Part shown: in pieces, positions 4,473-18,052 of the stretch
Numbering within the stretch: the stretch's first letter is position 1
Layout of the letters: each line of letters begins with the position of its first letter
Assembly (NCBI GenBank): GCA_964409165.1
Contig: CAYPCH010000079.1
Coordinates: 1-18,052, forward strand
Source of the DNA: an uncultured Oscillospiraceae bacterium
Lineage (GTDB): Bacteria; Bacillota; Clostridia; Acetivibrionales; Acetivibrionaceae
Length of the DNA: 18,052 nt
Direction of reading: 5' to 3'
The notes under the pieces: model-generated
Database searches by the model: none
Told to the model about the DNA's origin: nothing
Seen by the model: only the letters and a program-made list of their open reading frames with translations
Translations under genes and position numbers: made by a program

Positions 4473-5840
4473 TTAAAGCTTTAAACTTGCACAAGAGAAA
4501 GAAAAAGTAAAAGTACTTCCTTTATCAATATTGCTTTCAACCTTAACATATCCACCATGAATTTTTGCAATTTGCCTTACCATCGAAAGCCCAAGCCCCA
4601 TGCTTCCACTATCATTGGCTGCACGTGAAGGATCCACTTGATAAAACCTGCTCCATATCTTGTCAATTTGATCTGGATGAATGCCAATACCGTTATCAGC
4701 CACAGACAAAAAAATTATTTCTTTTTCCCGATACAGACGCACACGAACCTCTCCACCTTCCCTTCCATACTCATAAGCGTTACTGATAAGATTGGACAAC
4801 ATCCTTATAAAAAGAAAGCGGTCAACAATAGCCTGTATTCCCGATTCGATATCTGTAATCATCGAAATATTGCCGGCATTGATTTCTGTTTGCTCATTGC
4901 ATACCATCTCGACAAGTTCACTTAGGTCTGTATCTTCAAATATAGCTTTTTCAACCCCCTGCTCCAATCTTGTAAATATTAATAGCTGCGAAATCAAGCG
5001 GGACATCCGGGTGGCCTGACGTTTTATTGTTTCTAAAGATTCACGGTATTCTTCCTGTGCAGAAGAGTGTTCAAGGGCAAACTCGCACTGGGAAAGTATT
5101 ACAGAAATCGGAGTGCGCAACTCATGTGATACATCTGATGTAAACTGCTTTTCTTCATCAAACGATGCTTCTAAACGTTTAAACATTCGATCAAATGTCT
5201 CTGCCAGCCTGTAGATTTCATCACTACCACGTTCTAAACCTACTCGTTGCGACAAATCGCTTCCTTCGTTGATTTCGTTAGCTGCATTTATAATTCTATC
5301 CACGGGTTTAAAGGCAGCTTTTGCTATTTGGTACCCTACTAGCGCTGCAAGCACCACAATAAACGGCAACAGAATAAATGCAGATTTCATTACAGAACCT
5401 AAAATTTCTGAATTACTATCCGCAGGAATAAACCCGCGAATCCAAAGGTTCTCGTGTTTCTTAAATGTTATCAGCCTGTCAAATATATAATATTTCTGAC
5501 CGCCCGATACAACAGTTTTTACTTCTCCCTCAAGCAATGGTGTGTATGTTTGAAAGCCACTGGGTATATGCCCGTCAATCAACCTGTAATCCAAAGTGTA
5601 AACCACCGAAAAAACACCATTTTTGAAATAGGCAAAATCTTTGTCTGTCTCAACCTCTCCGTCATCATACTCCACTTCATCCATGTTTGCCTCTACAACA
5701 CGCACAAGAGTGCCCCGAGCATCATTTTCTGTCACATAATCGCTTAAATAGGTTAAAAAACACAGCATCAGTACTACCAGTATCAACATTAACAGTGTGT
5801 ACCATAATGTAACCCTCATTTTTATCGATAATCTCTTCAT
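4473..5840 (-). CDS. Sensor histidine kinase (TM - periplasmic domain - TM - HisKA - HATPase_c)
   Basis: H-box HELRTPISVI. G-box DNGIGIHPDQIDKIWSRFYQVD and GLGLSMVRQIAKIHGGY. Two hydrophobic TM segments. Start ATG overlaps the stop of the upstream response regulator (ATGA). Confidence 0.85.
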   Translation of the reverse strand: MKRLSIKMRVTLWYTLLMLILVVLMLCFLTYLSDYVTENDARGTLVRVVEANMDEVEYDDGEVETDKDFAYFKNGVFSVVYTLDYRLIDGHIPSGFQTYTPLLEGEVKTVVSGGQKYYIFDRLITFKKHENLWIRGFIPADSNSEILGSVMKSAFILLPFIVVLAALVGYQIAKAAFKPVDRIINAANEINEGSDLSQRVGLERGSDEIYRLAETFDRMFKRLEASFDEEKQFTSDVSHELRTPISVILSQCEFALEHSSAQEEYRESLETIKRQATRMSRLISQLLIFTRLEQGVEKAIFEDTDLSELVEMVCNEQTEINAGNISMITDIESGIQAIVDRFLFIRMLSNLISNAYEYGREGGEVRVRLYREKEIIFLSVADNGIGIHPDQIDKIWSRFYQVDPSRAANDSGSMGLGLSMVRQIAKIHGGYVKVESNIDKGSTFTFSFSCASLKL

Positions 5841-6511
5841 GATTCTACCCTCAATACATAGCCGCTTCCTCTTATTGTATGGATTAGTTTGGTTTCGAAA
5901 CCATCGTCAATCTTTTTTCTAAGATACCGGATATAGACATCGACAACATTAGAACCGCCATCATAGTCAAAGTTCCAGATATGGCTCTCTATCTTTTCCC
6001 TTGACAATACAATTCCTTTGTTCCTGATAAGGTATTCGAGCACTGCAAACTCTTTTGCCGACAGAGTTATACTCTGTGTCCCCCGTTTTACTGTGTGGCT
6101 GTTTATATCAACTGTTAAATCCTTAATGGTATAAATGTTGGTTGCATTTCCGGTTTTCTCCCGTGTCATAACACGGATACGTGCCATGAGTTCATCAAAT
6201 GAAAAAGGCTTTACCAGATAATCATTTGCACCTGTATCCAAACCCTTCACACGGTCAGAAATGGCATCGCGTGCAGTTAATAGTATTACAGGGGTAATAT
6301 CACCCTGCTCGCGCATACGACGTAACACTTCAAGTCCATCTACCTTGGGCATCATAATATCGAGTATGACTGCGTCATATTCAGTCAATTCTATATAGTT
6401 AAGGGCATCAATCCCGTCAAAACAGGAATCCACTCCGTACCCTTCAGCTATAAGCTTCTTGACGATGATTCTATTTAAATCTCTCTCATCTTCAGCCAAA
6501 AGTATACGCAT
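5837..6511 (-). CDS. OmpR/PhoB-family response regulator
   Basis: Receiver domain (MRILLAEDERDL ... ILDIMMPKVDGLEV) plus C-terminal winged HTH. The supplied ORF is extended at its 5' end. The ATG at 6511 (MRILL) is preceded by GAAGGGAGAG at the right spacing. Confidence 0.85.
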   Translation of the reverse strand: MRILLAEDERDLNRIIVKKLIAEGYGVDSCFDGIDALNYIELTEYDAVILDIMMPKVDGLEVLRRMREQGDITPVILLTARDAISDRVKGLDTGANDYLVKPFSFDELMARIRVMTREKTGNATNIYTIKDLTVDINSHTVKRGTQSITLSAKEFAVLEYLIRNKGIVLSREKIESHIWNFDYDGGSNVVDVYIRYLRKKIDDGFETKLIHTIRGSGYVLRVES

Positions 6512-6571
6512 GACCATCTCTCCCTTCAATACCGCTATAACAAATTCTATACCCAATACATTAAGAGCAGA

Positions 6572-6667
<96 letters not shown>

Positions 6668-6708
6668 TCATGTCCTAATTCTATCACAAACAATTTGAAA
6701 TCAAAACA

Positions 6709-6738
6709 CAAACCCAGTAAAGTAATTTGCTGGGTTTG
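6709..6738. promoter_or_regulatory. Palindrome CAAACCCAG-N12-CTGGGTTTG (candidate operator) between the truncated WYL fragment and the divergent RlaP promoter; paralogous copy at 14739-14768
   Basis: Perfect 9-bp inverted repeat. The 14739-14768 copy reads CAAAACCAG-N12-CTGGTTTTG, i.e. the C-to-A change in one arm is matched by a G-to-T change in the other arm. Confidence 0.5.
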
Positions 6739-6799
6739 CACTTTAAATTCCTCTAATACACTTATGTAATGTAAAACCTTTATTAAACTCAATATAATA

Positions 6800-6808
6800 T
6801 GGTATAAT
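6800..6808 (+). promoter_or_regulatory. Extended -10 promoter element (TGgTATAAT) for the RlaP operon; RBS AGGAGAA at 6827-6833
   Basis: TGnTATAAT at 6800-6808, 30 nt upstream of the ATG at 6841. Weak -35. Confidence 0.4.
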
Positions 6809-8768: not shown

Positions 8769-8807
8769 TTTGAGGATCTGGTTGCTCATAAAAAAGCCTG
8801 CTACTTT
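8769..8807. terminator. Rho-independent terminator hairpin between convergent RlaP2 and rtcB (12-bp stem AGCCTGCTACTT/AAGTAGCAGGCT)
   Basis: Perfect 12-bp stem with 9-nt loop. On the minus strand it is followed by TTTTTTATG (terminates the rtcB transcript). An A-run precedes it on the plus strand, so it could be bidirectional. Confidence 0.6.
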
Positions 8808-8860
8808 GTATAATCAAGTAGCAGGCTAATATAATGGTATGCCTTTTATTTAGAAGCATT

Positions 8861-10045
8861 TTAGTCGTCTGAAGCCTTAAAGTTATAAATAGGTTTAATT
8901 ATTTTGTTGATTTCTACAGTGTCGCGGATATTTTCAACAATCTCTTCAATAGGTTTATATGCAAGCGGTGCCTCATCAAGCGTATTCATTGACATTGAGG
9001 TAGTAAATATACCCTCCATTGACTTTTCGAACTCCTCTAATGACAGACTACGTTTTGCTTGTTTTCTGCTCATCAACCGTCCAGCACCATGAGGCGCAGA
9101 TTGATTCCAATCAGAATTACCCTTTCCTGTTGCAATGATACTTCCATCCCTCATGTTTATAGGAATAATAACCACTTCGCCTTTTTTTGCAGATATGGCT
9201 CCTTTTCTCAGAATCATTTCATCAAGATCTATATAATTGTGTATTGTGGTAAAACTATCCACCACGTTAAACTCCATTTCCCGTATAATAACCTCTGCAA
9301 TAGCCTTTCTATTATACTCGGCAAATTTTTGAGCTATATGCATATCATGTATGTAATATTCAAAAGCTTCGCCTTCAACATATGATAATGAATCCTTGAC
9401 TTTTGCTTTCTCTTTTTCGATTTCTTCCTGAATTTCCTTTGTTCTTCCTTGTGACTTTAGCTTCGCAATAATTGAGTCATTGCTTCTCCTTGCAATTTCC
9501 TTTGTTGCTCTTTGCTGGTAACACTCAGCGATTTGTTTGCCCAAATGCCTGCTCCCTGAATGTACAACCAAATAAATATTTCCTTCATCATCTTTATTCA
9601 TCTCAATGAAGTGATTTCCTCCACCTAAGGTTCCAATGCTTAAGGATGCCCTTACCAAATCGACATGTTCTTTGCATTTTAAGCCCTCAAGGTCTATATA
9701 TTCTTTGTATTCATGGACTGTTTCACGTACATCAAATCCACTTGGAACATAGCTTCGTATTGTGCTGTCAAGTTTATTAAAGTCAATCTTTGAATTATCA
9801 AGCATGCTGACAAACATCCCACAGCCAATATCAACACCTACCAGATTGGGAACAATCTTGTCTTTTATAGTCATAGTTGTTCCAATAGTACATCCTGCAC
9901 CGGCATGTGTATCCGGCATAATTCTGATATTACTGTCCTTGACAAATTCCTGATTGCAAAGTTCCTGAATTTGTTCGGCAGCCTTTTCCTCTATATTGTT
10001 TGTGAACACTTTTGCTGTGTTAAATTTGCCTTTGATTTCTATCAT
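8861..10045 (-). CDS. rtcB: RtcB RNA-splicing ligase (3'-phosphate/5'-hydroxyl RNA ligase), short archaeal-like form
   Basis: Diagnostic RtcB motifs: IMPDTHAGAGC, GGGNHFIE, VHSGSRHLG, NQSAPHGAGR. Confidence 0.9.
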   Translation of the reverse strand: MIEIKGKFNTAKVFTNNIEEKAAEQIQELCNQEFVKDSNIRIMPDTHAGAGCTIGTTMTIKDKIVPNLVGVDIGCGMFVSMLDNSKIDFNKLDSTIRSYVPSGFDVRETVHEYKEYIDLEGLKCKEHVDLVRASLSIGTLGGGNHFIEMNKDDEGNIYLVVHSGSRHLGKQIAECYQQRATKEIARRSNDSIIAKLKSQGRTKEIQEEIEKEKAKVKDSLSYVEGEAFEYYIHDMHIAQKFAEYNRKAIAEVIIREMEFNVVDSFTTIHNYIDLDEMILRKGAISAKKGEVVIIPINMRDGSIIATGKGNSDWNQSAPHGAGRLMSRKQAKRSLSLEEFEKSMEGIFTTSMSMNTLDEAPLAYKPIEEIVENIRDTVEINKIIKPIYNFKASDD

Positions 10046-11271: not shown

Positions 11272-11561
11272 TTTAATCCATCCCTTCGATAAACTAATAA
11301 TTTTTGCAACCTTTTTCAAGAATCCTCCCACAACATCAGCGGAGTGCTGCTTGAGGATATTTACTCACAGATCGTTATACATGGCTGCCTCTAAAGTTAC
11401 AGGCATTGCCAAGCATTGCCTGATTACTTTTTATACAGGCTCATGTATAAGGATAGGCTTGTTATATCCGGTATCCGCACACTTCAGAGCCTAAGTTCCG
11501 GTGCTTTTGCAAAAGTTCTGCAAAAGCCTGAGGATTCTCTCCAAAGATTCCTGTGAATTAC

Positions 11562-11703
11562 CTCGATTAAAAGTCGAGTGCTAAACCATAGCATTCAGAT
11601 CCCTAATCTGATGGGGATTTGAACCCCTTTTTCATTGCCTTATGCTCTGCCTCTGAGCTAATCACTTTGCAGTAATGGAGGAATCGAACCTCCGACACTA
11701 AGG
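11562..11703 (-). ncRNA. Candidate structured ncRNA: two tandem, circularly permuted tRNA-like modules (Y-RNA-like/YrlA-type tRNA mimic) with a tRNA-Lys(UUU) anticodon stem-loop
   Basis: Minus strand reads: CCTTA-GTGTC-[GGAGG TTCGATT CCTCC]-[ATTACT GCAA AGTGAT]-TA-[GCTC AGAGGCA GAGC]-A-TAAGG (TAAGG pairs with the 5' CCTTA), then [GGGG TTCAAAT CCCC]-[TCAGAT TAGGG ATCTGA]-AT-[GCTA TGGTT TAGC]-A-[CTCGA CTTTTAA TCGAG]. Both T-loops match the TTCRAWT consensus. The D-arm is tRNA-Lys-like. Lies in a 545-bp gap between a terminator and the SPFH-rtcB genes. Confidence 0.4.
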
Positions 11704-11833
11704 TTTTTTGCTCCAACTTTCCAGGCATACCTTTTATAATAAAAATAAAAGGCACCGCGAGACCATTTAGAAATCTCCGCATAAGGAACAGGAACAATAT
11801 TATTATACAGGTATAAAATACTAATTGACAGAC

Positions 11834-11870
11834 AAAAAGTTTGCAACCTTTGTCACGTTGCAAACTTTTT
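11834..11870. terminator. Bidirectional intrinsic terminator (14-bp stem AAAAAGTTTGCAAC/GTTGCAAACTTTTT) immediately downstream of the phosphatase-like gene
   Basis: Perfect inverted repeat with 9-nt loop, flanked by a T-run on the plus strand (TTTTTATATAAT) and TTTTTG on the minus strand. Followed on the minus strand by a TGTATAAT -10-like element (11802-11809). Confidence 0.5.

Positions 11871-12208: not shown

Positions 12209-12212
<4 letters not shown>
11877..12212 (-). CDS. Small LMW-PTP-fold phosphatase (COG4551-type predicted protein tyrosine phosphatase / ArsC-like P-loop)
   Basis: N-terminal P-loop VLFLCSRNKWRS (C-X5-R-S) as in low-molecular-weight PTPs and arsenate reductases. Only 111 aa. 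Stop codon overlaps the start region of the WYL gene (ATGA-type coupling at 12209-12212). Confidence 0.65.
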
Positions 12213-14791
<2,579 letters not shown>

Positions 14792-14794
14792 TAG

Positions 14795-15177
14795 CTATCC
14801 AACCTCTATGTATTTGGGATCTATAAAATCGGCAAGCCACACTTTTTCATTTCCTTTATAAAACGTAATTCCCTCATTCCAAGCATCCATAGAATTTATA
14901 ATAAGTAAAGCAGGATGGTCATCTCTCCTTTTACCAACTTGTAGAGCCATATCTGTGTCAACAGCCAAGTGAACATACTGCCTTCCTTTAGGAATCAATC
15001 CCTTTTCCTTAATCATTGATAAGAATCGCCTTGTTGTTCCATGAAATAAAACTTCAGGTGGCTGCAATGATTCCTTTATTATCCTCTGAGGAATTGAATG
15101 CCCGTACAAAGCTCTTATTCCCATGGTGCATGCCTCAATGCAAAAGACATAGCTTTACTTAATCTTGTATAATCCAT
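14795..15177 (-). pseudogene. kptA: Disrupted tpt1/kptA (RNA 2'-phosphotransferase): N-terminal 20 codons in one frame, C-terminal NAD-binding lobe (109 aa) in another, with about 50 codons missing between them
   Basis: C-terminal ORF has Tpt1 motifs (GIRALYGHS, LFHGTTRRF, QYVHLAV, VGKRRDDHPALLI, KVWLADFIDPKYI). Just upstream in the +1 frame: MDYTRLSKAMSFALRHAPWE-stop (Tpt1 N-terminal LSKxLSxxLRHxPE motif, RBS AGGAAGG). The roughly 55 residues that normally separate LRHxPE from IRAxQGHS are absent. Confidence 0.6.
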
Positions 15178-15506: not shown

Positions 15507-16010
15507 CTATGTAGCTTCAGTATATTCGCTATATGTATCCTCATCAAAGCAAACCATCAAAACTTTCTCAATGTTAGAATTCGTATCAAGAAACCCCTTT
15601 ATCTCATTAATTGCTATCACTGCTGCCCTTTCTACTGGAAATCTGTATGCTCCTGTACTTATTGATGGGAAAGCTATAGTTTTTATACCATACCTGGCCG
15701 CTAGTTCCAAAGAATTTCTATAACAATCAGCCAATAGTCCATCTTCTCCCCTGTTTCCTCCCTGCCACACAGGACCCACAGTATGGATGACCCACTTAGC
15801 GGGAAGTCTATATCCTTTAGTTATTTTTGCCTGTCCGGTTTTGCATCCATGTAGCTTCATGCATTCCATAACAAGTTTAGGTCCGGCTGCTCTATGAATA
15901 GCACCATCAACACCTCCCCCGCCAAGTAGTGAACTGTTTGCTGCGTTAACTATAGCATCAATAACTTGTTTTGTTATATCTCCCTTAATAACATCTAGTC
16001 TATTTATCAT
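15507..16010 (-). CDS. Macro domain protein (MacroD/YmdB-type ADP-ribose-1''-phosphatase / O-acetyl-ADP-ribose deacetylase)
   Basis: Canonical macro motifs: [28 protein letters not shown], and the downstream G-rich loop. Probable start at the second ATG (MINRLD, 16010), which is preceded by GGGAGG. Confidence 0.85.
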
Positions 16011-16264: not shown

Positions 16265-17476
16265 CTATTCTGTTTCATTATCCAAGACATCTTGCTCAAA
16301 AATCTTTGTATTAACAGCTTCTTGCTCCAATTTGCAATTATTCTCAAGCATATAGTCAATCACTTCACTAAAGTTGCTATCCCTTAGTCTTAGTAGCCTT
16401 TTACGATCATTTTCTGTAAGCTTTTTAGTATATTGGATATTCTCTTTTAGTGTGGCAGTATCCATTTTATAAGGTCGGAACTCCACCCCTGTTTGACCTT
16501 TCAAATGTTCAAATATATAAAACCCACCGGCATCTATGTCACCAAAATGATAAAAAGGCGTACCAGGATTTTGATGGTGTATTCTTTTGATAAATTCACG
16601 CCTAATATTATTATGATAACCGCCAAGATAAATTGCAAACATACCTTTATCACTAAAAGTATGAAAACTTGTTAAATTCTCGATAGTTATTACAGCCGTT
16701 CCTTTTACATCAATCGTTCCCACATCTGGTAATATAATAGAAGAAATTGCAATATCACCACCAAGTTTTGTCAAATCTATTATTTGGTCATTTAGTGTAA
16801 TACTGCCCGCACCCTTAAAATTTACGTATGTAGGATTTTTAATGATGTTTAAATTGCCTAGAACCTGATCTTTATCAGGAAAATCCCCATATTCGTATAA
16901 TAGGTTTATTACCTTGGAAGATAAAGCTTCAAATATCTTAGAATCTCTAAAAACTCTTACGGAAAAATCTCTGACAAAAATTTCAATTTCGACTTTCAAT
17001 AGCTCATCAACAGCTATCAAAATATTCTCCAGCTCTGACAAATCATTATTAAAGAATTGCACAGGTTTGTTTAATGCAATCCGTTCACATTGAGTTTCGC
17101 AATATTTCATTAAGATGGGATTTCTCAATTTATATTTTTCCATCAAATGAAGAATAGCCGAATTTGTATCCTTTTTAGGCGACCTTCCAACATAATTATA
17201 TACTTGTTCCAAGCTATTCAGATTTAAAACAATATCTTTATAAACTTTTGCCGAATTTGCTTGTGCAAATATGAATTGCTTTCTTATTAAGATGTCTATA
17301 GCCTCGTTTATCAAGTTAAACGCTTCATAGTTTGAATGATCAGCATACTGAGGAAACAAGGAAGAAACTTTGACCATGAACCTTTGATTTACCTTGTTAT
17401 CCCCTATAAAACTTTTGCTTCTTTCAAACTTGTCCAACAATTCATTAATTATCTGACTCTCAAATCTGCTCCTCAT
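16265..17476 (-). CDS. jetD: JetD/MksG-like protein (DUF3322 N-terminal + DUF2220 Toprim/TopoVI-A-like C-terminal domain) of a Wadjet-type SMC system
   Basis: C-terminal Toprim signature: acidic E in ITIENLTSF and DxD in HFGDIDAGGFYIF. About 400 aa. Start overlaps the stop of the upstream SMC-like ATPase (ATGA). Confidence 0.6.
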   Translation of the reverse strand: MRSRFESQIINELLDKFERSKSFIGDNKVNQRFMVKVSSLFPQYADHSNYEAFNLINEAIDILIRKQFIFAQANSAKVYKDIVLNLNSLEQVYNYVGRSPKKDTNSAILHLMEKYKLRNPILMKYCETQCERIALNKPVQFFNNDLSELENILIAVDELLKVEIEIFVRDFSVRVFRDSKIFEALSSKVINLLYEYGDFPDKDQVLGNLNIIKNPTYVNFKGAGSITLNDQIIDLTKLGGDIAISSIILPDVGTIDVKGTAVITIENLTSFHTFSDKGMFAIYLGGYHNNIRREFIKRIHHQNPGTPFYHFGDIDAGGFYIFEHLKGQTGVEFRPYKMDTATLKENIQYTKKLTENDRKRLLRLRDSNFSEVIDYMLENNCKLEQEAVNTKIFEQDVLDNETE

Positions 17477-18052
17477 AGGTCATACTCCTCAATAATGCTT
17501 GTCGTACCCTCCCTCATTGCCATTAGAATCGTGTCTACCTTTTCGCCAATTATCTCAATTTTTGAAGGTGGTGTGGCAAGTATAATCTGGAAATTCTGAC
17601 TGTTTAAAAAATCCATCATTGAGCTGATACGGTTATCGTCCATCTTGTCAAAAGCTTCGTCAAACATAATAATTCTGATTGTATCACCAAGCTTATAGAG
17701 CTGGACAAAGGATGCTGCTATAGCTACATAATATGGTGTTTGGGTTTCTCCGCCACTTTTTTCACCATATATTTTCGAAAATCGCTGTACTATCCCATCT
17801 TTCTTCTCCACAATAATATCATAATCAAGATATCTTCTGTAATCTGTATATTCTAAAAGCACCTTCTCTCCCTTGTCATCATAAGCAGTTAACTTGGCAA
17901 ATAGGTCTTCCATCTCTTCCTTATATTCATCATCAAAGGCTCTGGACCATAAATTAAATCCTGCTTCATTGTTTTTTGACATAATCATTTGATAGATGCT
18001 TTCTTTTTTCTTATTGTGAGTCAACTCAAACTTGTAGCTGTCGTCACCATAG
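17473..18052 (-). CDS. jetC: C-terminal end of a JetC-like SMC/ABC-type ATPase (partial; the gene continues beyond the window end)
   Basis: ABC signature-like GEKSGGETQ, then Walker B/D-loop IIMFDEAFDKMD. The frame stays open to the last base of the window, so the apparent start at 18024 is a TTG and an artefact of the window edge. Confidence 0.5.
   Translation of the reverse strand, partial: YGDDSYKFELTHNKKKESIYQMIMSKNNEAGFNLWSRAFDDEYKEEMEDLFAKLTAYDDKGEKVLLEYTDYRRYLDYDIIVEKKDGIVQRFSKIYGEKSGGETQTPYYVAIAASFVQLYKLGDTIRIIMFDEAFDKMDDNRISSMMDFLNSQNFQIILATPPSKIEIIGEKVDTILMAMREGTTSIIEEYDL

Follow-up and report, generated by a model that had tools for sequence, protein, structure and literature searches.

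Two solved WYL regulators, DriD and BrxR, use inverted repeats as their DNA sites. The DriD site is a 20-bp palindrome, 17 nucleotides (nt) upstream of the recA -35 box, and it is conserved in sequence and present at several promoters of the regulon (PMC9186387). BrxR uses an 11-5-11 inverted repeat, and its boxes are located between promoter and gene (PMC9122601). PafBC consists of two tandem WYL paralogues, and its targets have no functional -35 and share a conserved upstream motif (the basis of the comparison made below is PMC9186387). The rsr-yrlBA-rtcBA RNA-repair operon of Salmonella is controlled by RtcR and sigma-54 (PMC7790460, PMC4201824). The subject here is a pair of palindromes in 18,052 nt of DNA from an uncultured Oscillospiraceae bacterium (contig CAYPCH010000079.1 of assembly GCA_964409165.1), a stretch that is called the window from here on. 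The left palindrome is located at 6709-6738 and the right one at 14739-14768. The right copy lies in the promoter region of WYL1, a gene for a regulator of the helix-turn-helix (HTH)-WYL-WCX type, in a locus that also encodes the RNA ligase RtcB.

In low-GC Firmicutes, intrinsic terminators also serve as insulators. A stem-loop with a U-rich run then follows a co-directional open reading frame (ORF) and stands just before the next promoter. The palindrome before WYL1 shares this arrangement, and we consider it probable, though far from certain, that it is a terminator-like insulator placed before the WYL1 promoter. A first-pass annotation of this DNA had offered two readings of the palindromes, an RNA hairpin and the operator of a dimeric regulator. 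It is the hairpin that holds up, on account of compensatory and G.U changes that make sense on the WYL1-sense strand only; the operator does not.

The palindromes themselves are as first described: two perfect 9-bp inverted repeats with a 12-nt spacer, exact in coordinates and letters. On the + strand the left copy reads CAAACCCAG-TAAAGTAATTTG-CTGGGTTTG, and the right copy CAAAACCAG-CAAAGTAATTTA-CTGGTTTTG. The arms of the two copies do indeed differ solely at position 5, where the difference is mirrored (A:T versus C:G). By our own estimate, two substitutions among 18 arm positions would hit the same pair and leave it Watson-Crick paired with a chance of about (1/17)x(1/3), or ~2%, a figure that is suggestive, not decisive. 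A search of the window for a degenerate form of the dyad, with at most 3 mismatches, returned 2 sites, which are the two known copies, where shuffles lead one to expect 0.03.

The pairing does not stop at the arms. The outermost spacer bases add a further mirrored difference (on the + strand T...G in the left copy, C...A in the right), and the three spacer bases further in are AAA and TTT, which pair. Because the spacer is partly self-complementary, each element amounts to a stem of 13 bp that includes one wobble or mismatch and is capped by a 4-nt loop.

Read as RNA on the minus strand, which is the WYL1-sense strand, the right hairpin (14739-14768) is CAAAACCAGUAAA-UUAC-UUUGCUGGUUUUG, with a 13-bp stem and a tetraloop. 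Its U-rich tail, CUUAUUAUUCC, occupies 14728-14738 (minus) and overlaps the -35 and UP-element position of the WYL1 promoter. The left hairpin (6709-6738, minus) is CAAACCCAGCAAA-UUAC-UUUACUGGGUUUG with one C/A mismatch, and has its U-rich tail UGUUUUGAUUUC at 6697-6708 (minus). Read on the + strand, the left copy is a perfect 13-bp stem. The right hairpin folds at -15.7 kcal/mol on the minus strand (z -4.14). The left one folds at -21.3 kcal/mol on the minus strand (z -4.8) and at -18.9 kcal/mol on the + strand. All four strand versions, two copies on two strands, have z-scores of -3.4 to -4.8 against shuffles. No Rfam family covers the palindrome in a search of the window, where the only matches were a sub-threshold YrlA and a transfer-messenger RNA (tmRNA) fragment at 11640-11767. 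A tRNA scan of the window returned zero tRNAs.

WYL1 has ~190 homologues in Clostridia, and the comparisons below draw on a set of 88 related loci (57 genomic, 23 metagenomic and 8 further ones). Among them, L003 (Petroclostridium sp. X23), L026 (Clostridium sp. OS1-26) and L046 (Oceanirhabdus sp. W0125-5) come from complete genomes. A covariance model of the hairpin was built from six instances and run over 83 sources, or ~1.1 Mb. It matched both window copies, L004 (identical in L067 and L084), L006 (the cultured Ruminiclostridium cellobioparum DSM 1351, with its hairpin at 4524-4553), L008, L059, L086/87 and L088. It also matched a decayed remnant in L036/L063 and, weakly, a possibly unrelated sequence in L041. 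Together with seven contig look-ups, the model yielded only L084, L086/87 and L088 as new carriers. The hairpin is confined to a small sub-clade of nine loci with eight distinct sequences, and in carriers it is always found directly 5' of the extended -10 promoter of WYL1. No dyad was found outside the duplicated WYL1 5' module in the ~1.1 Mb of related loci, nor at the promoter of the noncoding RNA (ncRNA), SPFH and rtcB genes.

Across the eight distinct hairpins, standard pairs fill 93.3% of 104 pair cells. If the partner is slid by 1-3 columns, pairing falls to 33-55%. Two stem pairs show double-sided changes: position 5 occurs as A-U, G.U, C-G and G-C, and position 8 as A-U, G-C and G.U. 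The pairing level of 93.3% was reached by 15 of 500 shuffles, and the other shuffle control gave 13 of 500.

The deviations from Watson-Crick pairing are unevenly distributed between the strands. The hairpin alignment has 21 G.U cells against 2 A.C cells. Counted as independent events this is ~11 G.U versus 2 A.C, for which we estimate a binomial p of ~0.01 (our own figure, not tool output). This excess indicates that the orthologous hairpins fold on the WYL1-sense strand and poorly on the opposite one. Predicted folds agree, with sense versus antisense energies of -13.9 vs -5.7 kcal/mol for L006, -16.8 vs -4.5 for L008 and -12.4 vs -7.2 for L004. As double-stranded DNA, both window copies are symmetric over their 9-bp arms. 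The elements of L004, L006, L008, L086 and L088 depart from symmetry, and they do so by G.T confined to one of the strands. A double-stranded binding site has no reason to tolerate changes that preserve RNA pairs on one strand, and this disfavours an operator. Intrinsic terminators likewise keep their pairing through compensatory and wobble changes on the transcribed strand, and as in those, an upstream A-run mirrors the U-run.

The genes in front of the hairpin are also as one would expect of a terminator. Six of the nine hairpin loci have a co-directional ORF whose end is 17-53 nt ahead of the hairpin. This ORF is a KptA/Tpt1 pseudogene in the window, a gene called gene X here in L006, L059 and L086, an RNase T-like exonuclease gene in L008, and a 226-amino-acid ORF in L084. 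In the window, the right hairpin begins 27 nt past the stop of the pseudogene ORF. The pseudogene (14795-15177, minus) derives from an RNA 2'-phosphotransferase gene and consists of 20 N-terminal codons (MDYTRLSKAMSFALRHAPWE), a stop, and then a 109-amino-acid C-terminal ORF; the Pfam match is limited to positions 75-176.

Two further carriers, L004 and L088, have no long ORF between the hairpin and a promoter aimed at it. This promoter contains motif A, a family-wide element with the 21-nt consensus TTGCAAnnTTTTTGTCTGTAA, followed by N17 and then TATACT or TATAAT. Gene X looks to have been deleted in L004, because L004 has kept a leader homologous to the one ahead of gene X in L006. Gene X itself is a conserved protein of 170-200 amino acids (L006 3916-4497, L059 2782-3384, L086 863-1381), transcribed from motif A, with RlaP1 on one side and the hairpin on the other; neither the window nor L004 has it. 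A Pfam scan of the L059 copy, the only one scanned, gave no match.

The two palindromes of the window are not independent occurrences, because both lie inside one direct repeat of ~173 nt. The left copy of this repeat spans 6578-6750 (repeat families D2 and D3) and the right copy 14607-14780. They are 82% identical (79-89% in the repeat search), with one indel. On the minus strand, each copy presents in order the hairpin, a U/T-rich stretch, the extended -10 TGATAGAAT, the ribosome binding site (RBS) GAGGAG, and an ATG with 20 WYL1 codons. In the right copy, the extended -10 at 14708-14716 (minus) is the putative WYL1 promoter, called P2, as judged from consensus and from its conservation in orthologues. 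There it takes the form T(A/G)TG(A/G)TAGAAT, ~40 nt ahead of the ATG. The P2 duplicate of the left copy is at 6678-6686 (minus). The WYL1 reading frame runs for 444 amino acids from the right copy. In the left copy its translation ends after 24 codons, a truncated 5' remnant at 6572-6646 (minus).

The copies are old. Either one matches the orthologous L004 region, which comes from another species, at 82-83% identity, so the divergence within the window equals that between orthologues of different species. This means either an old split or separate lineages of origin. Given this divergence, the mirrored base-pair difference is ordinary between-orthologue variation and no sign of recent selection in this genome.

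The gene order suggests how the left copy arose. In the conserved layout, RlaP1 and then RlaP2 point one way, and WYL1, WYL2, (phosphatase), ~500 nt of non-coding DNA, SPFH and RtcB point the other. In Clostridium the layouts are WYL1, WYL2, RtcB, or [Y RNA], Ro60, RtcB, WYL1, WYL2. The window has its RlaP1 and RlaP2 genes (PF10127) on the + strand, and RtcB, the SPFH protein, a small phosphatase-like protein and WYL2 on the minus strand, and compared with the conserved layout the WYL1-to-RtcB block is on the other side of the RlaP genes. Since merely a 5' stub of WYL1 stays beside RlaP1, the left copy is the relic of a rearrangement.

Other rearrangement scars are found near the hairpin. In L036 (3703-3905) a hairpin remnant is joined directly to an internal WYL1 fragment (residues ~112-160), and in L084 (1240-1500) a motif A leader is joined to the unrelated upstream ORF. 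The WYL1 5' region seems to be prone to rearrangement. In the window, the P2 duplicate and RBS of the left copy (6508-6686, minus) aim at the WYL1 remnant and at genes for an OmpR-type response regulator (5837-6556) and a histidine kinase (4473-5840). If the duplicate drives these genes, this may be a case of promoter capture.

Put together, the palindrome would encode, on the minus strand, an RNA hairpin that is built like an intrinsic (Rho-independent) terminator, from a 13-bp A/U-rich stem, a tetraloop and a U-rich stretch. It would block transcription arriving from upstream and insulate the WYL1-WYL2 operon. The unit that is blocked would be the decayed KptA gene in the window, and gene X, driven by motif A, or the exonuclease gene in relatives. 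WYL1 and WYL2 would then be expressed from their own conserved extended -10 promoter. A rearrangement split the RlaP genes from the WYL1-RtcB block, with the ~173-nt relic staying beside RlaP1. The mirrored difference would be ordinary hairpin covariation, built up while each copy was still at work in its place. Today the left copy probably terminates nothing. The sequence, the repeat structure, the pairing pattern among relatives, the strand asymmetry and the gene contexts are observed, and that transcription actually ends at the hairpin is inferred.

Several observations weigh against a terminator. The covariation sample is small, at 8 sequences, and the shuffle controls given above are moderately convincing, as related sequences can reach such values without structure. 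A pattern scan of the window (at least 5 T in 8) lists the right copy as one of four terminator-like sites, where shuffles give 4.9, so that such a hit alone is no evidence. The left copy is absent from this list, probably through its internal mismatch. A custom terminator finder, run on WYL1 upstream regions, gave no usable statistic and missed the left copy and several obvious hairpins. The U-tract is interrupted, with ~6 U among its first 9 bases, and just 4 of the stem pairs are G-C, so any termination may be weak or incomplete. Alone among the hairpin loci, the left copy has nothing upstream of it on the WYL1-sense strand, and its hairpin is still intact. Conversely, L001, L005 and L062 have an upstream co-directional gene and no clear hairpin. 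And the hairpin stands behind unrelated genes (KptA, gene X, exonuclease), so that what it accompanies is the WYL1 promoter module, as a protein site tied to the promoter would do too.

The element is accordingly not a textbook terminator. Unlike those, the window stem is long and A/U-rich with those few G-C pairs, the interrupted U-tract also serves as the stretch ahead of the next promoter, and one of the copies has nothing left to terminate. A similar design does occur elsewhere in the window, where T-rich DNA ahead of a promoter supplies both the 3' arm and the U-tract of an inverted repeat at 11834-11870. Further long A/T-rich stems stand behind genes at 1905-1940 and 8795-8827.

The operator has to be weighed next. 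Here a dimer of WYL1, WYL2 or both would bind the dyad as double-stranded DNA, with autoregulation of WYL1 at the right copy and control of the RlaP operon at the left. DriD and BrxR provide the precedent, as they too have an inverted repeat in the promoter region of an HTH-WYL-WCX gene. WYL1 (13341-14675, minus, 444 amino acids) has a Pfam WCX match at 6.8e-14 and a sub-threshold WYL match. Sequence searches of the PDB with WYL1 and WYL2 gave no match. A fold search with a structure model of WYL1, of which the predicted local distance difference test (pLDDT) score is 66.8, matched DriD (E-value 2.7e-13), PafBC, CapW and BrxR; the structurally nearest are DriD and PafBC.

With respect to the WYL1 promoter the dyad covers about -38 to -67, which is plausible for an activator. 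It had been described as overlapping the WYL1 -35. It is indeed near the promoter, but it ends 3 nt upstream of the -35 position, so it abuts and does not overlap. On the left, the dyad was said to be about 70 bp upstream of the extended -10 of the RlaP1-RlaP2 operon. This is roughly right, the measured distance being 61 nt. That -10 is TGGTATAAT at 6800-6808 (+), and TGnTATAAT equivalents are present in orthologues. An operator would also explain why the dyad accompanies the WYL1 promoter and not any single upstream gene, and why the left copy is intact where there is no gene to terminate.

We nevertheless regard an operator as unlikely, and conservation is the main reason. In a 20-member family alignment, the predicted recognition helix of WYL1 (H135-148) is almost invariant, with S134, K136, T137, R140, K141 and E144 fully so. 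One would expect the DNA target to be equally conserved, and the dyad is not: it is missing from most orthologous promoters. The hairpin's 5' arm is missing, with P2 kept, in L001, L002, L060, L062, L065/L082 and L066/L083, of which the WYL1 proteins are 78-82% identical to that of the window. Since such close orthologues with the same promoter do without it, the dyad is dispensable for WYL1 control. They still hold the 3' arm and T-rich tail (...GGTTTTGTATTTTGCTTCC...). In L081, at 78% WYL1 identity, the hairpin has no match, and a TatD gene that stops 11 nt short of the WYL1 ATG leaves no room for a separate promoter region.

The letters of the dyad point the same way. Position 5 is no base-specific contact, because A:T, C:G, G:C and G.T all occur there. 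The half-sites of orthologues, asymmetric as double-stranded DNA, do pair as sense-strand RNA. The dyad is thus unlike the DriD and BrxR sites in that its sequence is not conserved among orthologues and its symmetry holds as RNA only, and unlike the DriD regulon sites in that the other promoters of the window locus lack it. The idea that it joins the RlaP and rtcB genes into one WYL regulon finds no support. The promoter of the ncRNA, SPFH and rtcB genes has no dyad and has motif A, in loci from Clostridium to Acetivibrio and Desulfosporosinus, and the RlaP-side copy is accounted for by a segmental relic that includes 20 WYL1 codons.

It is also conceivable that the hairpin is a regulated attenuator between an inducible motif A promoter (with gene X) and WYL1, where read-through would tie the dosage of the regulator to induction. 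Motif A is found upstream of hairpin and WYL1 in L004, L006, L059, L086 and L088, and the weak U-tract and A/U-rich stem fit partial termination. In sister lineages (L002, L017-L021, L052, L054) motif A directly precedes WYL1, which makes the coupling of the two ancestral. Neither an antiterminator (an alternative structure) nor a conserved leader was found, however, and neither window copy has motif A upstream. Regulated attenuation would be a refinement of the terminator model, from which sequence alone cannot separate it, and in that specific form we hold it to be improbable.

A more sober possibility is that both copies are functionless relics of an ancestral hairpin, copied by duplication, and that the mirrored difference is chance or history with no selection in this genome. 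The left copy belongs to an obvious pseudogene fragment, the gene upstream of the right copy is a pseudogene too, the copies are old at 82% identity, and L036/L063 have a decayed version. But both stems are perfect over 9 bp and have 12 of 13 pairs intact in a repeat that is otherwise ~18% substituted, and the hairpin has been kept across at least 8 diverged sequences. This makes mere relics quite unlikely.

One can also speculate that in the Acetivibrio/Ruminiclostridium sub-clade the hairpin is a tunable insulator or an extra, lineage-specific operator that uncouples WYL1 and WYL2 from a damage-inducible motif A promoter, with the RlaP-side copy still in use. We would give this little chance. 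If it were true, WYL proteins could for example bind either the dyad in its DNA form or the stem-loop as a nucleic-acid ligand, and so link the RlaP nucleotidyltransferases to the RNA-repair response.

A DNA-level recombination site, with a cruciform or hairpin used by a recombinase, would account for the scars clustered beside the element in the window's left copy, L036 and L084 (the leader fusion), but it is very hard to believe given that no integrase or transposase adjoins the element in the window, that junction positions vary between genomes, that no target duplications are seen and that the G.U asymmetry favours RNA.

A probable terminator-like hairpin that is also a rearrangement scar is a familiar kind of element, and as such the palindrome matters little. 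Motif A and the ncRNA of ~450 nt behind it are the more interesting objects of this WYL-RtcB RNA-repair locus. Motif A was aligned from 52 instances, and further loci match a relaxed TTGCAAnn pattern; the pattern for genome searches is TTGCAANNTTTTTGTCTGT. Among loci L001-L076, it is present in most that are sufficiently long, always on the WYL1 strand, and its range extends from Clostridium to Acetivibrio and Desulfosporosinus. Between RlaP and WYL1 it precedes WYL1 itself or gene X, and it is also found ahead of the non-coding region that precedes SPFH or Ro60 and RtcB. L002, for example, has it at 9897-9915 and at 15779-15797. The GTC of motif A is 23 nt from the -10, TATACT or TATAAT, and there is no canonical -35. 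In our reading, the hexamers at that position (TGTAAA, TGTCAA) are a poor match to TTGACA.

The window has a single instance, TTGCAAACTTTTTGTCTGTCA at 11826-11846 (minus), with one mismatch to the query and 0.01 expected. Its -10, TATAAT at 11802-11807 (minus), is upstream of the Y-RNA-like ncRNA, SPFH and RtcB. A window search did not find motif A in either ~173-nt repeat copy. By analogy, motif A is the best candidate for the target promoter of WYL1 and WYL2, a stronger one than the palindrome. It would offer both WYL proteins a concrete DNA target, and with it a possible way of switching an RNA-repair operon outside the RtcR/sigma-54 paradigm.

Motif A appears to resemble PafBC-type activation more than the palindromic operators of DriD and BrxR. 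Like PafBC, WYL1 and WYL2 are encoded in tandem, here by overlapping genes. Motif A is asymmetric, 21 nt long, abuts the -35 position, keeps a fixed distance of 23 nt to a TAnAnT -10, and stands ahead of regulator genes as well as repair genes. The likeness concerns motif A, not the palindrome. It has its limits: these are Clostridia, the motif sequence is another one, the cargo is RNA repair and not DNA repair, and activation is here proposed by analogy only. TTGTCTGT may be similar to the mycobacterial RecA-NDp motif.

Two identifications that involve motif A were considered and rejected. Three Clostridium loci have TGGCAA-N5-TTGTC, which brings a sigma-54 promoter to mind, but most instances have TTGCAA, without GG, and TTGT where TTGC would be needed. 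The hairpin is also no degenerate motif A. The left copy shares TGCAAAC with it, but the right copy and the orthologous hairpins have no match, and L004, L006, L059, L086 and L088 carry both elements separately.

Motif A of the window overlaps the inverted repeat at 11834-11870 (minus) already mentioned. This is a perfect 14-nt repeat, AAAAAGTTTGCAAC-N9-GTTGCAAACTTTTT, which has the shape of a terminator and is located behind the phosphatase-like gene. Its 3' arm and T-run form the 5' part of motif A, and the inverted partner is conserved in many loci. This conservation means either that a terminator and a promoter element overlap here, or that the partner is a second, inverted half-site.

The ncRNA that motif A appears to drive is at 11332-11806 (minus), upstream of SPFH and RtcB. 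It is structured, ~450 nt long and conserved across genera (alignment A3, 16 loci), with tRNA-like and YrlA-like modules. It has two T-arms, GGAGGTTCGATTCCTCC and GGGGTTCGAATCCCC, and a D-arm-like TAGCTCAGnGGTAGAGCA, and its GGATACCGG is invariant. Of the 71 pairs that RNAalifold predicts, 23 show compensatory changes. In Rfam it has a sub-threshold YrlA match only, at 33 bits against 69. An 86-amino-acid ORF at 11603-11863 is probably spurious, because this region is that of the conserved structured ncRNA.

The Salmonella operon introduced at the outset is similar in that the RtcB ligase is encoded together with a tRNA-like Y RNA under one dedicated regulator, in some relatives with Ro60/TROVE. 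One of these is L039 (6290-11691, Clostridium punense), which has, in this order, motif A, a YrlA-like RNA (36.9 bits, full-length model), Ro60/TROVE, RtcB, WYL1 and WYL2, in effect an rsr-Y RNA-rtcB unit with the WYL pair in the place of RtcR. Unlike in Salmonella, the regulator is this WYL pair and not a CARF-AAA+ enhancer-binding protein, and the promoter looks sigma-70-like. In the window, the place of Ro60 is taken by an SPFH protein, and the ncRNA has a length of ~450 nt.

Upstream of the right hairpin and beyond the KptA pseudogene, the window has a macro-domain gene and JetD/JetC fragments. The latter, at 16265-18024 (minus), are JetD (JetD_C, E-value 3.7e-22) and the C-terminal end of a JetC/SbcC-like ATPase, as in Wadjet. 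Because they adjoin the macro-domain and KptA genes, the RNA-repair locus abuts a defence system.

WYL2 is a diverged paralogue of WYL1 with 391 amino acids (12209-13384, minus), and its ORF shares 44 nt with that of WYL1. A WYL2 homologue adjoins WYL1 in every sufficiently long locus, after WYL1 or, in L048 and L049, before it. The interior of the window's WYL2 (12974-13103) contains 3 exact tandem copies of a G+C-rich 42-nt unit, which encode a repeated unit of 14 residues. Such a unit is unusual for a stretch of ~36% GC. With it, this WYL2 exceeds in length the gene of 336-380 amino acids that is called after WYL1 in six relatives.

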